Below, in pieces: positions 28,042 through 37,317 of a stretch of 64,000 nt of DNA. The stretch comes from a virus, in the UHGV virus genome UHGV-0098755; one strand, given 5' to 3'. The notes beneath the pieces are model-generated. The model ran no database searches. It saw only the letters and a list, made by a program, of their open reading frames with translations, and was not told where the DNA came from. Each line of letters starts with the position of its first letter. Position 1 is the first letter of the stretch. Both the position numbers and the translations under genes were made by a program.

Positions 28042-28095
28042 TCCTCATGTTATGTCAGTAAGTCTACTATAACACAACACGAGGGACTTGTAAAC
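28042..28095 (-). promoter_or_regulatory. early-type promoter plus conserved leader (repeat copy 1), drives the 96-aa ORF
   Basis: - strand GTTTAC-N17/18-TATAGT then leader with GAGGA; 54-bp block 53/54 identical to 43083-43136. Confidence 0.5.
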
Positions 28096-30152
28096 TACAT
28101 TTTGAACTTTTTAGACATTCCGTTAATGTTAACCAAAGAAGCTAAGATTTGAGAAACTTCGTTTTCCTCTTCTTTTGATTCTTCTACAAGGAATTGATTA
28201 AATCCAGCCATTGGACGAACTTCACCAGTTTCCATTAAATGGTCTCCATCATATACTGATTCTTCTAATTGTTCAGAAGGAGGAACGATTGTACCTTCGA
28301 TTAGATACTTGTTATAAGCAGTTTCTTTCATAAAGTACGTACTTACTTTATTAATCTTCAGTAAAATTCCACGCGGTAAAATAACTTCAGCTTCTGATGG
28401 AAATCCTGTTAAATGACCTGGAACGATAACTTTGATTCGCTCAGCTCCTTTAATTACCATACCCACGCTAGTTTCAGCATTTTCATTAGCGTATGTAGAA
28501 TGACTACCCATATGCATCAAATCTTCTGCATCAACAGAACCTTCTCCTTCACCAGAAAATACTGCGCCGGAATCATCTAGAGCCATATAGTTTTTACCAT
28601 GCTCGCCGAAGATATTTGGTTTAAGCGATGTAGATACGAAGTTCTTGAAATAGAACATTTTGTTTTCAATGTTATGACGCAAAGTTTTAAAGGTAACTTC
28701 TTGTCCACGGTAAAGTGTAGTTCCTGGAGGAAGAACTGAACCTTTAGCGAATGCAGAATCCAACGTCTCGATGTGCTTAATAGCTCGTTCCATATATTCT
28801 TCACGGGTAGAATCAGGTTTACCCAAAAGGAATGAGTTCATTTCAACATATGAATCTGCACAATAATCTTCAATTACATCAGATTCAGCTTGAGTTAATC
28901 CTTTTGGAGTTACTTCAATACTTGCATATTCATATGCCTGGGTAGCAGATTCATTAATCAATTTATAAATGCCATTCATTACAAATTGAATAATAGCTGT
29001 CTTTTCATCTGGCGTAGCTTTAGAACCTTTAACCAAATCATTGATAATTTTCTTAATAACATCAAAGCTGTTAGAAATATTAATATCAGCAAGATCGCTT
29101 AAAATTTTATCAGTTTTATAATCAAAGAATTCTTTATTCTTTAAATATTCTTGAGAACCTTGATATGTTATATCGTTCTGCAACTTGATGGATGGATCAC
29201 GTAAACGTGCATGGGCTAATGCAATATGATTTCGGAAACTTTCTAGTTCATAATCGTTAGATTTAAAACGAGAAGCACTCCTCATACCACCGATAGCTCC
29301 TTTGCTGAAGTTTGAACCAATCTGAATAACGCCAGAGTTCATTGGTCCTTCTGCTTTATATACCGGAACTTTAGATTCAAACTCTTGATATTTCTTAGCA
29401 GCGAAGCTATCACCCTGAAGTGAAGCATCAACAGTAGAATATTGAGCTTGTGCTGCTAATCGACGACTAATTTTAGTTTTCTGAATAACAGCTTGGTCCG
29501 TGCGCTTATCATTTTCTAAAGCAATAGAAGCAGCAACAGCGACAGCTTTAGGAACAGCATTACCTGTTTTAACGTCTACATAAACATCACCAACCTTTGA
29601 TTCAACTTTTGTGAATAACTCAGTTGAAATAGGAGGTACACCTGGAATGTCTTCTAAATTGGCATTTTTACGGTAAACCATAATATATGCATACTTTTTA
29701 TCATAGTCCCAGATTTCCTTTAAAAGAACATATCGACCTGCTCCTTTAGTACGTACTAAACGGTCAGCAATAACTTGCATTTGACGAGCAGCGCCATTTG
29801 TTTTACTCTTTAGTACACGGAATAAGCACGCGTCAATTTTATACTGTTTCATTGTTTGAAGAGCAGTATCAAAAACAGCATTAATGACGCCAATTGGATT
29901 TCCACCCAAGTTTCTAAGCTTAACCAGTGATAATTTCTCATTAACACCTATCATTACGATATGCATCATTTTATCGCCCGGCTTAACGTTTTTATTCGTA
30001 TCACCGCCAGAGGTGTATGTACAAAATCTAAATCCAGGAAGCACGCTTTCTTCGCCGGCTTGAATAGCAAAAATTTGTGGTATTTTATGCTTAGGATTTA
30101 AGTTAACAACCGGCGCCGAAGCGCCGTCAAATAATTCTGTAATAAGTTCCAT
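28095..30152 (-). CDS. alt: Alt-type mono-ADP-ribosyltransferase (685 aa), downstream copy
   Basis: N-terminal MELITELFD... packaging/cleavage-type signal; C-terminal R-S-E ART motifs (LYRGQ, FVSTSL, EAEVILPRG). Confidence 0.75.
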   Translation of the reverse strand: MELITELFDGASAPVVNLNPKHKIPQIFAIQAGEESVLPGFRFCTYTSGGDTNKNVKPGDKMMHIVMIGVNEKLSLVKLRNLGGNPIGVINAVFDTALQTMKQYKIDACLFRVLKSKTNGAARQMQVIADRLVRTKGAGRYVLLKEIWDYDKKYAYIMVYRKNANLEDIPGVPPISTELFTKVESKVGDVYVDVKTGNAVPKAVAVAASIALENDKRTDQAVIQKTKISRRLAAQAQYSTVDASLQGDSFAAKKYQEFESKVPVYKAEGPMNSGVIQIGSNFSKGAIGGMRSASRFKSNDYELESFRNHIALAHARLRDPSIKLQNDITYQGSQEYLKNKEFFDYKTDKILSDLADINISNSFDVIKKIINDLVKGSKATPDEKTAIIQFVMNGIYKLINESATQAYEYASIEVTPKGLTQAESDVIEDYCADSYVEMNSFLLGKPDSTREEYMERAIKHIETLDSAFAKGSVLPPGTTLYRGQEVTFKTLRHNIENKMFYFKNFVSTSLKPNIFGEHGKNYMALDDSGAVFSGEGEGSVDAEDLMHMGSHSTYANENAETSVGMVIKGAERIKVIVPGHLTGFPSEAEVILPRGILLKINKVSTYFMKETAYNKYLIEGTIVPPSEQLEESVYDGDHLMETGEVRPMAGFNQFLVEESKEEENEVSQILASLVNINGMSKKFKM

Positions 30153-30155
30153 GAT

Positions 30156-32246
30156 TTATCCTTGAACGAACTTGTAAGGCATGTTTGCAATATCTATGCA
30201 AGACGCAATAATTCCAAGAGATGATTCTACTTTCTGTTTAACATTTGATGAAACAAATGATGCAAAGTCAACTCTATCTTCTATATCACCTGTCATTGTA
30301 ACCAATTCACCAGTTTCCATCAGATGGTCACCGTCATAAATTACCGATTCGGTGAGTTCTTCCGTAGTCATAACTTCAGCTTGAATGAGTTTTGTATTAT
30401 TAGATGTTGTTCCGTCATTATTAGAAGCATCAGTTATTTTATTAACTTTGACCATCAATCCGCGTGGTAGAATTACTTCAGCTTCTGTTGCTATTCCAAG
30501 ACTTCCTGGATATACAACATTAACTTTATGAGCTCCATCAATTGCCCATCCTATTTGAACTTTAACGTATTCAGGATTTTCTTTATACGCTCTTATTTCG
30601 TTTGGATTAATAGTTATTCCTTCTTCATTTTTATCAACTGTTAATTCATTACGAGCTTCTGGTTCTAAAAGACCGATACCAGCATGTGTAATTCCAAAAC
30701 GTCCAAAAATGATAGGAGTTAAAGAAGTAGATACAAAATTTCTGAAATAGAACACTTTATTTTTAACTAGTGCTTCGTATATAGGAGCAGTCATGCTTTG
30801 AGCACGATAAACTGTAATGCCTTCTGGTATACGGTCACCATTTTCAAAAGCTGAATCTAAATTATTTATAGCAGATTCAATTTCTTTTTCACTCATTACA
30901 TCATATCGTTCTGGATTGTAGCGGCCTAAAAGAAGATTATTGATGTCAGTATATCCTGATCCACAATACTCTCTAATGCCACGCTTTTGTGATGGAGTAT
31001 ATTTAGAACCATCACGGGCAATAGTAATATCAATCATTGGACCTGCACCAATTCCAGAAAAACTATAAATCATTCGTTTGAGGAATTTAGTTTTTGCTGC
31101 GTTCCAGGAATTTTTAGTTATTTCTTCCCAGACTTCATCTGGCTGCCCTTTACGAGTTTTATTATGTTTATCAAGCCAATTATCTTTATATTCTTCAAAG
31201 AATTTATTAACAGCTGCTGCGTATTTCTCTAAACATTTTATTGAAGTAGTTGGTTCATTTTTAATCGCATTAAGAATTACATCTTTAATTTTTTCAGAAA
31301 CTTCATTAACCTCACTTTTTGAAAAGAATTTATAATCATAGTGAAGTTCATCTGCAGTTCCTTCGGCAATGATTTTTGCTGCCTTAGTTTTAGAAGCTAT
31401 TGAATTAATTCCAAGTTTCATTTCTTCCGCTTCGGGAATTAAAGGAGCGGTAGCAGGTTTATTGAAATTAGCTGCGGTAGATTCATACTTCTGGAATAAT
31501 TCACTTTCAAATCTAGAAGATTCTAATGATTGACTTTGTGCAATTGCTCTACGGGAAATTTTAACTTTAACGATTACAGCTTGGTCAGAACGTTTATCAT
31601 TTTCTTGCGCAATAGATGCAGCAATTGCCTCATTTTTAGTTACTTGAGCTCCAGTATCTTTATTGATATAAACATCACCAACCTTCGATTCAACTTTAGT
31701 AAAGAGCTCGGTACTAATTTCCGGAACTCCTGGAATGTCTTCTAGTGATACGTTTTTGCGATGTATAAGAATATATGCATACTTTTTATCATAATCCCAG
31801 AGTTCCTTAAGAAGGACGTATCTGCCGCCTGAACGACTACGGATAAGTCTATCAGCAATAACTTGAATTTGTCGAGCTTGACCAGCAGTTTTAGACTTAA
31901 GAATACGAAGCATGCAGGCATCAATTTTATACTGACGCATTGTTTGCATTGCAACAGTAAAAACTGAATTGATGTAATTAATTGGGCTTGGACCGAGACC
32001 TTTTAATTTAGCAATTGAACCTTTAGCAGTTAATGTAAAAGGAACAATATGCATCATTTTATCGCCCATCTTTAAATCACGGTTAGTATCACCTCCAGAT
32101 GTATAGGTACATAAACGAAAACCTGGTTGTTCAATTGCGTCATCAACATGAACTGAAAAAATTTGCGGTATTTTCTTCTTTGGATTTAAGTTTGTAATCG
32201 GAAGAGTAGTATCTTCGTCAAATAATTCTGTAATAAGTTCCATCAT
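30156..32246 (-). CDS. Alt-type mono-ADP-ribosyltransferase paralog (696 aa from first ATG, 695 from second), upstream copy
   Basis: Similar first ~230 aa to the 685-aa copy, divergent middle, conserved R-S-E motifs (VYRAQ, FVSTSL, EAEVILPRG); late promoter on - strand at 32267-32274. Confidence 0.75.
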   Translation of the reverse strand: MMELITELFDEDTTLPITNLNPKKKIPQIFSVHVDDAIEQPGFRLCTYTSGGDTNRDLKMGDKMMHIVPFTLTAKGSIAKLKGLGPSPINYINSVFTVAMQTMRQYKIDACMLRILKSKTAGQARQIQVIADRLIRSRSGGRYVLLKELWDYDKKYAYILIHRKNVSLEDIPGVPEISTELFTKVESKVGDVYINKDTGAQVTKNEAIAASIAQENDKRSDQAVIVKVKISRRAIAQSQSLESSRFESELFQKYESTAANFNKPATAPLIPEAEEMKLGINSIASKTKAAKIIAEGTADELHYDYKFFSKSEVNEVSEKIKDVILNAIKNEPTTSIKCLEKYAAAVNKFFEEYKDNWLDKHNKTRKGQPDEVWEEITKNSWNAAKTKFLKRMIYSFSGIGAGPMIDITIARDGSKYTPSQKRGIREYCGSGYTDINNLLLGRYNPERYDVMSEKEIESAINNLDSAFENGDRIPEGITVYRAQSMTAPIYEALVKNKVFYFRNFVSTSLTPIIFGRFGITHAGIGLLEPEARNELTVDKNEEGITINPNEIRAYKENPEYVKVQIGWAIDGAHKVNVVYPGSLGIATEAEVILPRGLMVKVNKITDASNNDGTTSNNTKLIQAEVMTTEELTESVIYDGDHLMETGELVTMTGDIEDRVDFASFVSSNVKQKVESSLGIIASCIDIANMPYKFVQG

Positions 32247-33941: not shown

Positions 33942-34207
33942 TGCTCATCCTTCAAGGTTTGGTTTACAGCTCTATTATAAATCAATTCATCATTAAGCTC
34001 AGGCAAAGACTTATGATATGTGGTTCTAACTTTATTTCCTTGCATCCAGTGCTTGATATAAATGAAACCTTGCTCTACACATTTTTTAAAAATTCGTTCG
34101 TCTTTTTGAGCTCGGAATTCTGGATTGCATCTAAAAAATTGATTTACGTGACCGTAATCACGTGTAGTATTACCTTCATTTTCATAAATAGTGTGAACAA
34201 CAAACAT
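33938..34207 (-). CDS. hypothetical protein (89 aa), position of T4 30.1
   Basis: ATG start; overlaps gene 30 start region. Confidence 0.5.
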   Translation of the reverse strand: MFVVHTIYENEGNTTRDYGHVNQFFRCNPEFRAQKDERIFKKCVEQGFIYIKHWMQGNKVRTTYHKSLPELNDELIYNRAVNQTLKDEQ

Positions 34208-35046
34208 TAGAATGCTCCTTGGAAAATATTATCACCACAAGTAGGTCTATTATACAAATACTCTATACCGCCGGGTTTAATATAGTTCCATGTCTGAAAC
34301 GGATGCGTCTGATATGGATGATATAGATGATTATAAGGATTAAATCCAGGAGTTCTCCAGGTAGTGTTCCAAGGAAAAGAATCGTTTTTAATCATCTTTT
34401 CAATTACATCTTTTATAGCTTTTTCACTATCAAAACTTTCTTTATTTTCCTTTGGTGAAAAAAGCTTATTCTCTACATCGTTCCATGTATAAACTCGCTG
34501 AGCAGTTTTTGGAATACTGTCACGTTCCCCTCGAGCCATCCAATAAACAGGAACACTTAATATTTCACTCGCGTGATCGCAGTGGTGAGCGAGATCGTCA
34601 ATATAACAAATTACGTTATATTTCTCTTTTGCCTTTTTGAACAACTCTTCTTTTGAAGAATCATGGCCACACATCAGTACTTCTGAGAAGGCACCAGGAA
34701 AAAGAGCATTCAAATTAAATTGACGATTCAGCAGAGCGTCAATAGAATCACCCAGTGCTGTAACAGCTACAAAATTATAATCTTCTTTTAATTTGTTAAT
34801 TACACACAGAGCATCTTTATATGGAGACAAGTAACGAATAAAATCCGAACGATTGTATTTTTCAATTAACTTGACGCCAAGTTCTTCATCACAATTAAAA
34901 AGTTTACCAGGAGAAATAAATTTTTCATCTTGGATCATTTTTAAAATATGTTCCAACGGAAGATTATATTTCTGAGCAAAATAAGGAAGGCCTGATTGCC
35001 AGCTTAAGCATACTCCATCAATATCAGTTAAAATAGTAGGCTTCAT
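34207..35046 (-). CDS. HAD-like phosphatase-family protein (279 aa), position of T4 30.2
   Basis: N-terminal ILTDIDGV (DxDG motif I of HAD hydrolases). Confidence 0.55.
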   Translation of the reverse strand: MKPTILTDIDGVCLSWQSGLPYFAQKYNLPLEHILKMIQDEKFISPGKLFNCDEELGVKLIEKYNRSDFIRYLSPYKDALCVINKLKEDYNFVAVTALGDSIDALLNRQFNLNALFPGAFSEVLMCGHDSSKEELFKKAKEKYNVICYIDDLAHHCDHASEILSVPVYWMARGERDSIPKTAQRVYTWNDVENKLFSPKENKESFDSEKAIKDVIEKMIKNDSFPWNTTWRTPGFNPYNHLYHPYQTHPFQTWNYIKPGGIEYLYNRPTCGDNIFQGAF

Positions 35047-35501
35047 AGAGAGTCTCTTAATAGGTTTAACACATCAATAAATTCAGCTTCGGTTAGTATT
35101 GTATCATCTTTTGTTAGACCACTAGCCATGCTGTGCTTCAAAACTTTTCCTTTCGAGGCTTGTAATGCATCACGAAAACCCTTGTTTTGAATCGCTGCTT
35201 CAAAATATGCATTTGTGTATAATTCTTTCCACGCCGGAGAGTATCTTGAAAACGGAACTCCAAGCCAGAAGAGGGTCCCACGGTCCTGAGCTCTAGCATA
35301 AGACCTTCCAGCTTGTTGAGCGGCAAGCCCGGATAACCCAAATATACGACGTTGTTGTTCAACATTTTTCACCTTGCATCCTTGGAGGAATCCTTCAAGA
35401 CCTCCAAATTGAATACCATCCATAACGAAAGGCCATTGGGCGAAATTGCTTAATGCACATGATGGCCATCTAAAATTGCTTCTTATCTCTAGCTCAGACA
35501 T
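35043..35501 (-). CDS. NADAR / YbiA-like (DUF1768-type) protein (152 aa from ATG; ORF-track TTG start at 35507)
   Basis: LSNFAQWPFVMDGIQFGGLEGFLQGCKV and GLSGLAAQQAGR resemble E. coli YbiA FSNFAAWPIKVDGKTWPTSEHYFQAQKF / SSPMVAARMGR as recalled. Confidence 0.55.
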   Translation of the reverse strand: MSELEIRSNFRWPSCALSNFAQWPFVMDGIQFGGLEGFLQGCKVKNVEQQRRIFGLSGLAAQQAGRSYARAQDRGTLFWLGVPFSRYSPAWKELYTNAYFEAAIQNKGFRDALQASKGKVLKHSMASGLTKDDTILTEAEFIDVLNLLRDSL

Positions 35502-35700
35502 TTTCAATACTTATAATTTCAACATCAGCCCAATGACCATAGCAAGGAAGACGAAATTCAACTGGCCAGTTAGGGTCCTTTTCTAATATAATAGACTTAA
35601 CTTGCGGTTCTTCGTGTTCATCAGTATACGGACCTTTATACGTTACTTTATATGTGACCTTAATGTACTGAATTCCAAAAATCTTATTAATTATATTCAT
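35494..35700 (-). CDS. hypothetical protein (68 aa), position of T4 30.4
   Basis: ATG start; tight packing. Confidence 0.45.
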   Translation of the reverse strand: MNIINKIFGIQYIKVTYKVTYKGPYTDEHEEPQVKSIILEKDPNWPVEFRLPCYGHWADVEIISIENV

Positions 35701-36181: not shown

Positions 36182-36199
36182 AATATTTTCCTCAATAGG

Positions 36200-36215
36200 G
36201 GGCCGAAGCCCCTCA
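36200..36215 (-). terminator. hairpin (UUCG loop on - strand) in the small-ORF cluster upstream of gene 30
   Basis: GGGGGC-CGAA-GCCCCT on +. Confidence 0.4.
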
Positions 36216-36655: not shown

Positions 36656-36988
36656 TTATTTTACTACTTTCCAATGCTGCATGTCAAGTTTACCAACTTT
36701 TTTCATCTTCTCAATTAAGCGTTCGGCACGTTGGCGAGCTGTAACATAATGCCATTCGCCTAATTCATTTTGTTCAATTTTTCCAACGATTACTGTATTC
36801 AATTCATAAATCCAACCAGTAAAGAAATTATGAACTTGGATTGCAAAGGTGAAATCTGTTCCCATACCTTCTGTTGTTTCTACTTCAATAATATCACCTT
36901 CAACTGCCATTAAGAACCACATAGTTTCATCATATTTACCATTGAAGCATTTAGTTTTAACTGTAGCGTTCAGATTAATCGTTTTCAT
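36656..36988 (-). CDS. hypothetical protein (110 aa), position of T4 30.8
   Basis: ATG start. Confidence 0.5.
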   Translation of the reverse strand: MKTINLNATVKTKCFNGKYDETMWFLMAVEGDIIEVETTEGMGTDFTFAIQVHNFFTGWIYELNTVIVGKIEQNELGEWHYVTARQRAERLIEKMKKVGKLDMQHWKVVK

Positions 36989-37074
36989 TTTATTCTCCTT
37001 TGTTGGTGTAAGATAATACTATCACAAAGGAACCATACTGTAAACAACTTTATGCAATCTTTGGAAAATAAAAA

Positions 37075-37094
37075 AGGACTCCCGAAGGAGTCCT
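37075..37094 (-). terminator. 8-bp-stem hairpin (UUCG loop on - strand) after the small basic ORF
   Basis: AGGACTCC-CGAA-GGAGTCCT on +, preceded by A-run (U-run on - strand). Confidence 0.5.
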
Positions 37095-37098
37095 CAAC

Positions 37099-37317
37099 TT
37101 ATGCTTTCTGCTTACCAAAACGAGAAGCATCATCTCGAAGAACCGCACGTGCTCGGCGCATGATCTTCTCAACAGTTTGATTGATACGAGAGTTCGACCC
37201 ACGCTTGTAGCCAGCGCGTTTAGAATCACCAACTTTCTTTTCAACTGCTTTCTTTGCTTTAGCTTGTTTTGCCATTATAAATTCTCTTTTAAATGAAAAT
37301 GCAGGACTTATTGGCAT
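37099..37317 (-). CDS. small highly basic protein (72 aa; alternative ATG at 37275 gives 58 aa), position of T4 30.9
   Basis: Lys/Arg-rich; the internal ATG at 37275 has the better AAGAG-type RBS. Confidence 0.45.
   Translation of the reverse strand: MPISPAFSFKREFIMAKQAKAKKAVEKKVGDSKRAGYKRGSNSRINQTVEKIMRRARAVLRDDASRFGKQKA

Follow-up and report, generated by a model that had tools for sequence, protein, structure and literature searches.

A probable orthologue of the T4 anti-DarT factor AdfN in a run of overlapping genes of a T4-like phage

Results

A homologue of T4 gene 30.3 in a run of overlapping genes

The window analyzed here is a 64,000-nucleotide stretch of DNA and is a segment of a T4-like (Tequatrovirus) genome. 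The ORF list places an uninterrupted minus-strand open reading frame (ORF) at window positions 35043..35507. Its longest version starts with a TTG at 35507 and encodes 154 amino acids. Two codons downstream is an ATG (35499..35501), which is the start annotated in T4 and gives 152 amino acids. This ATG is the likelier start. A first-pass annotation of this DNA had reported an ORF of about 152 amino acids at 35043-35507. We found the ORF intact, and the only corrections were its strand, which had been left unstated, and its likely ATG start. We refer to the gene as adfN (T4 gene 30.3; 35043..35501, minus strand, TGA stop at 35043..35045), and its predicted product is a 152-amino-acid NADAR-fold DNA ADP-ribosylglycohydrolase. 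Inside it is a 75-amino-acid out-of-frame ORF in the ORF list, 30.3' (35138..35365, minus strand), which the T4 annotation gives as an internal translation within 30.3.

The neighbors of adfN are homologues of T4 DNA ligase, 30.1, 30.2, 30.4 to 30.9, rIII, gp31, and dCMP deaminase, and their order is identical to that in T4. adfN sits between 30.4 and 30.2, upstream of DNA ligase gene 30, with the same gene order and overlaps as in T4. Gene 30.4 (35494..35700, minus strand, 68 amino acids) has its TGA stop inside codons 2 to 3 of adfN, an overlap of 8 nt (ATGTCTGA). The ATG of gene 30.2 (34207..35046, minus strand, 279 amino acids) overlaps the adfN stop (ATGA). Throughout the seven-gene run from 30.6 to ligase gene 30, start and stop codons overlap by 1 to 8 nt, which suggests that these genes are co-transcribed and translationally coupled.

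A promoter and terminator scan of the window found sites at levels not above those in shuffled controls and gave no firm transcription-unit boundaries. Among the sites were a near-consensus sigma-70-like promoter (TTGACA-18-TAAAAT) at 36687..36658 on the minus strand and two terminator-like GC-rich hairpins with a T run. One hairpin is at 36198..36213, between 30.7 and 30.6, and is on the plus strand only. The other is at 37074..37095 on the minus strand, within the 37099..37317 ORF region. None of the three was above the shuffle expectation.

The window also encodes two Alt proteins. One is the orthologue of the T4 ADP-ribosyltransferase Alt (30156..32246, minus strand), with 71% identity to T4 Alt over its full length, near-identical ends, and a diverged middle. 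The other is a second full-length paralogue (28095..30152, minus strand) with 41% identity to T4 Alt. At its place T4 has only alt.-1/alt.-2, annotated as remnants of a duplicated copy, whereas the window phage has a full-length gene. The nearer Alt gene ends 2.8 kb from the adfN ORF, in agreement with the distance of about 3 kb noted in the first-pass annotation.

The window protein is nearly identical to T4 gp30.3

The window protein and T4 gp30.3 (NP_049816) are identical at 151 of 152 residues (99.3%). The sole difference is Met125 in the window protein, which is Ile125 in T4. This position lies two residues past His123. Close relatives often have Met there, and Ile is in the majority across the wider family. 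The adfN DNA is 100% identical to that of Escherichia phage N2, with 655 phage records matching, and AdfN-type proteins occur in 1511 records from many hosts. In the phage records listed, the gene still goes by "hypothetical protein," and a "GP30.3" family name appears only occasionally, so better annotation is one practical value of this analysis.

In an hmmscan against Pfam, the only match was PF08010 (Phage_30_3), with an E value of 2.3e-70 and a score of 235 bits (cutoff, 36), covering profile positions 1 to 138 of 138. This match, the identity to T4 gp30.3, and the 655 matching records put the ORF well outside what chance would produce. The PHROGs assignment was phrog_652, a family without an annotated function. 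An exhaustive HMMER search for the gp30.3 family yielded 1454 clusters at 50% identity. Some members have additional domains. P0023, P0025, P0026, P0037, and P0110, each about 290 amino acids, have a partial and a complete gp30.3-type domain in tandem, and such members may explain the 296-position profile of phrog_652. In others, the fusion partner is an LRR_5, GDSL lipase, LGT, ASCH, or alpha/beta-hydrolase domain.

Fold and profile-profile evidence place the protein in the NADAR superfamily

The likeness to YbiA/NADAR proteins had been proposed from two peptides, and both are present. They are LSNFAQWPFVMDGIQFGGLEGFLQGCKV, at residues 17 to 44 (35370..35453), and GLSGLAAQQAGR, at residues 55 to 66 (35304..35339). 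A BLASTP alignment with E. coli YbiA covered these peptides, with 33% identity over 57 residues (pairwise E value of 8e-6).

The first-pass annotation had also suggested a profile-HMM search for NADAR, and this gave a mixed outcome. In hmmscan, the Pfam NADAR model PF08719 did not match the window protein even at E values up to 1. An NCBIfam search returned nothing, a PADLOC search returned no defense-system match, and phmmer against PDB sequences found no NADAR and only one spurious weak match. The comparison of profiles did recover the family. We built a 60-member gp30.3 profile (A2) from the 1454 HMMER clusters, and hhalign matched it to YbiA with 94.8% probability (E value of 5e-8, 133 columns). 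An hmmsearch with the same profile against PDB sequences retrieved YbiA only (E value of 0.0022). Furthermore, 5 of 40 multi-domain members of the family also match PF08719, at 17.7 to 19.1 bits, which is below the curated cutoff of 35.1. The window protein has the NADAR alpha+beta fold, with core helices flanked by small beta-hairpins, and this fold is clearly YbiA-like. Superfamily membership therefore rests on the fold and the profile-profile evidence, because PF08719 and the phmmer search of PDB fail directly. The NADAR assignment was to be dropped if there was no NADAR match and the fold was unrelated to YbiA; the fold is YbiA-like, so it stands. The remote NADAR motif that a reader correctly recognized from the sequence by itself escapes the NADAR model of Pfam.

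Catalytic residues and the C-terminal helix are intact

The E-x3-Q-x2-K motif is present in the window protein. Across 60 diverse family members, its catalytic Glu36 (codon 35394..35396, minus strand) is invariant, and Gln40 and the catalytic Lys43 (codon 35373..35375, minus strand) are each at least 90% conserved. Glu36 and Lys43 align with the Glu and Lys of this motif in YbiA, and E36A and K43A substitutions impair T4 AdfN (PMC11825919).

The acidic catalytic residue that NADARs of the YbiA and BC4488 families have in the last beta-strand is absent, and His123 (codon 35133..35135, minus strand) is there instead, in a predicted strand. It is also at least 90% conserved in the 60 members. At this last-strand position, the YbiA family has Glu, the DarT-linked BC4488/DarG1 family has Asp, and gp30.3 proteins have His (PMC11125620; for His, also PMC11825919). 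His123 is a hallmark of the gp30.3 subfamily, and it is still compatible with NADAR membership.

The ORF reaches residue 152 without a frameshift. Its predicted C-terminal alpha-helix (residues 138 to 152; 35046..35090, minus strand; pLDDT about 88 to 90) is intact, and the match to T4 is full length. C-terminal truncation impairs AdfN, and RB69 has lost this helix by a frameshift; its truncated protein is less active, and the phage is sensitive to DarTG1 (PMC11825919). In contrast to the RB69 allele, the window copy is predicted to be functional, and we infer that with Met125 it behaves like T4 AdfN.

Function of the T4 protein and the proposed role of the window copy

The role of gp30.3/AdfN in countering DarTG1 is already established in the literature. 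According to Schuller and colleagues, T4 gp30.3 hydrolyzes guanosine-ADP-ribose in vitro, but not thymidine-ADP-ribose (PMC11125620). In the Methods of that paper, the T4 gp30.3 construct is given as residues 1-208, compared with 152 amino acids in both the T4 RefSeq entry and the window ORF; tags or the use of another homologue may account for this discrepancy. Johannesman et al. traced the ability of T-even phages to resist DarTG1 to gene 30.3, for which they introduced the name adfN (PMC11825919). Deleting adfN from T4 and T2 abolished plaquing on DarTG1, plasmid-borne adfN rescued RB69, and purified AdfN removed ADP-ribose from DNA (PMC11825919). In a T4 transposon screen, 30.3 insertions were strongly depleted on DarTG1 (log2FC of -7.25, padj of 0) and were neutral in the RnlAB and DarTG2 comparisons (bioRxiv 10.1101/2025.11.20.689424). 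The first-pass suggestion that the protein counters DarT-like toxins agrees with this published work on the T4 orthologue.

The ORF is almost certainly the orthologue of T4 gene 30.3, now adfN (for anti-DarT factor NADAR), encoding an orphan phage-borne antitoxin that reverses guanine ADP-ribosylation on DNA. The basis for orthology shown here is the identity to T4 AdfN, synteny, the NADAR fold, and the intact catalytic residues and C-terminal helix. For enzyme activity, specificity for guanine-ADP-ribose, and the DarTG1 phenotype, we rely on published work with the T4 protein, which is 99.3% identical. In the proposed mechanism, the DarTG1 toxin-antitoxin defense of the host acts through its toxin DarT1, which attaches ADP-ribose to guanines of phage DNA and blocks replication. 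AdfN, a small single-domain protein made from the tightly packed run of genes from 30.6 to ligase gene 30, would cleave the guanine-ribose N-glycosidic link and lift the block. It would act as a phage-carried orphan antitoxin with no toxin partner.

T4 gp30.3 fails to rescue DarT1 toxicity in uninfected cells (PMC11125620). Also, T4 AdfN is fully effective only in T-even infection and helps non-T-even phages weakly (PMC11825919). Therefore, a model of one enzyme and one lesion is incomplete. The locus bears on why T4 AdfN needs T-even infection to work.

Genes 30.4 and 30.2 as candidate partners

Homologues of gp30.4 were found in 711 phage records. All are of T-even types, including RB69-like phages at 42 to 53% identity, and jackhmmer found no homologue of gp30.4 in 80 distant NADAR loci. 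On DarTG1, T4 30.4 insertions were significantly depleted (log2FC of -1.79, padj of 0.014) according to supplementary data of the transposon screen preprint, whose main text leaves this depletion undiscussed (bioRxiv 10.1101/2025.11.20.689424). This depletion, the overlap of the 30.4 stop with the adfN start, and the confinement of 30.4 to T-even-type phages carrying this AdfN clade make it a candidate for a T-even-specific factor that potentiates AdfN, although we give this only a small chance of being correct. The simplest explanation is that 30.4 insertions affect adfN expression through polarity or translational coupling.

We are confident that gp30.2, which is labeled hypothetical in T4, is a HAD-superfamily phosphatase. 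All four HAD catalytic motifs are conserved, and the protein resembles 5'(3')-deoxyribonucleotidases, with a disordered and variable C-terminal tail of about 60 residues. In P0032 and P0040, two metagenomic gp30.3-type NADARs, an NT5C deoxyribonucleotidase domain is fused to the NADAR domain, and the order of the two from N to C terminus matches that of the 30.3-30.2 genes. These fusions, the HAD fold, and the ATGA overlap fit the idea that gp30.2 is the missing T-even co-factor of AdfN. However, T4 30.2 insertions were neutral on DarTG1 (log2FC of -0.12, P = 0.61; bioRxiv 10.1101/2025.11.20.689424), and among 80 distant viral NADAR loci, only 11 had a HAD gene of that kind within 5 kb. In addition, phmmer with gp30.2 failed to retrieve any of these fusions, and when gp30.2 was compared with the NT5C fusion domain by hhalign, the probability was only 68.5%, a marginal similarity. 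We therefore rejected gp30.2 as the co-factor for the DarTG1 phenotype. A looser metabolic link between gp30.2 and NADAR is possible, and the NADAR-HAD fusions hint at a shared pathway.

Discussion

Other possible activities of AdfN

Besides acting on DNA, AdfN might degrade low-molecular-weight ADP-ribose-derived signals or by-products of RNA repair. This has been proposed for phage NADARs on contextual grounds (PMC9503650). It is also in line with the locus that encodes the P0032 NADAR-NT5C fusion (L003 1..8851, Logan ERR9710099), a bacterial cluster that includes DUF1810, an ADP-ribosyl glycohydrolase, a canonical NADAR, a Phage_30_3 fragment, the RNA ligase RtcB, PTP-NADK, and a low-molecular-weight phosphatase. 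This cluster indicates that the clade of gp30.3-type NADARs extends beyond phages and occurs in ADP-ribose/RNA-repair contexts. However, a substrate of this kind has not been reported for the gp30.3 clade, and removal of ADP-ribose from DNA fully accounts for the known phenotype (PMC11825919). Therefore, we consider an additional small-molecule activity unlikely.

The first-pass annotation had raised the idea that the protein tunes the phage's own ADP-ribosylation, and a related proposal is that it reverses protein ADP-ribosylation by Alt, ModA, or ModB. adfN is 2.8 kb from two Alt paralogues, and a comparative study noted early expression of NADAR genes together with ADP-ribosyltransferases in several T4-like phages (PMC9503650). 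However, all tested NADARs act on guanine-ADP-ribose, with no activity on protein substrates reported (PMC11825919, PMC11125620), and T4 30.3 insertions are neutral without DarTG1, so the tuning idea found no support. Moreover, the ligase gene and 30.1-30.2 lie between adfN and alt, so their proximity is merely the fixed T4 gene order. A role in the phage's own protein ADP-ribosylation is thus very improbable.

It is just as hard to credit that the main activity of the protein is that of a YbiA-type metabolite N-glycosidase, clearing damaged intermediates of the riboflavin pathway, rather than DNA repair or counter-defense, because the gp30.3 clade has His in place of the defining Glu of the YbiA family, and the T4 protein strips ADP-ribose from DNA and has a strong DarTG1-specific phenotype (PMC11825919; bioRxiv 10.1101/2025.11.20.689424).

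Comparison with known NADAR systems

E. coli YbiA (2b3w) is the founding member of the NADAR/DUF1768 family. In a structural alignment it shares only 18% identity with the window protein, and it carries Glu in place of the His of gp30.3. The YbiA gene is chromosomal and lies in an operon under LexA control, and YbiA does not protect against DarT1 (PMC11125620).

DarG1 proteins of DarT1-NADAR (DarTG1) systems, such as the G. lovleyi NADAR (8bat), have a partner toxin, whereas the window AdfN has none. Its gene neighbors are 30.4 and the HAD gene 30.2, with no adjacent DarT1 gene. NADARs linked to DarT1 carry an N-terminal extension, whereas the window AdfN is a bare 152-amino-acid domain, and DarG1 has Asp in the last strand where AdfN has His. 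T4 AdfN is unable to replace DarG1 in uninfected cells (PMC11825919).

AdfN(Bas32) and AdfN(Bas60), which are NADARs of T5-like and Vequintavirinae phages, are, like AdfN, phage-encoded orphans that neutralize DarTG1 (PMC11825919). However, both were acquired independently and fall into NADAR clades other than that of gp30.3, and neither needs a T-even factor (PMC11825919). T4 AdfN and the window protein have the same length, the same overlaps with 30.4 and 30.2, the same E36, K43, and H123, and an intact helix, and the substitution of Met125 for Ile125 that separates them is conservative.
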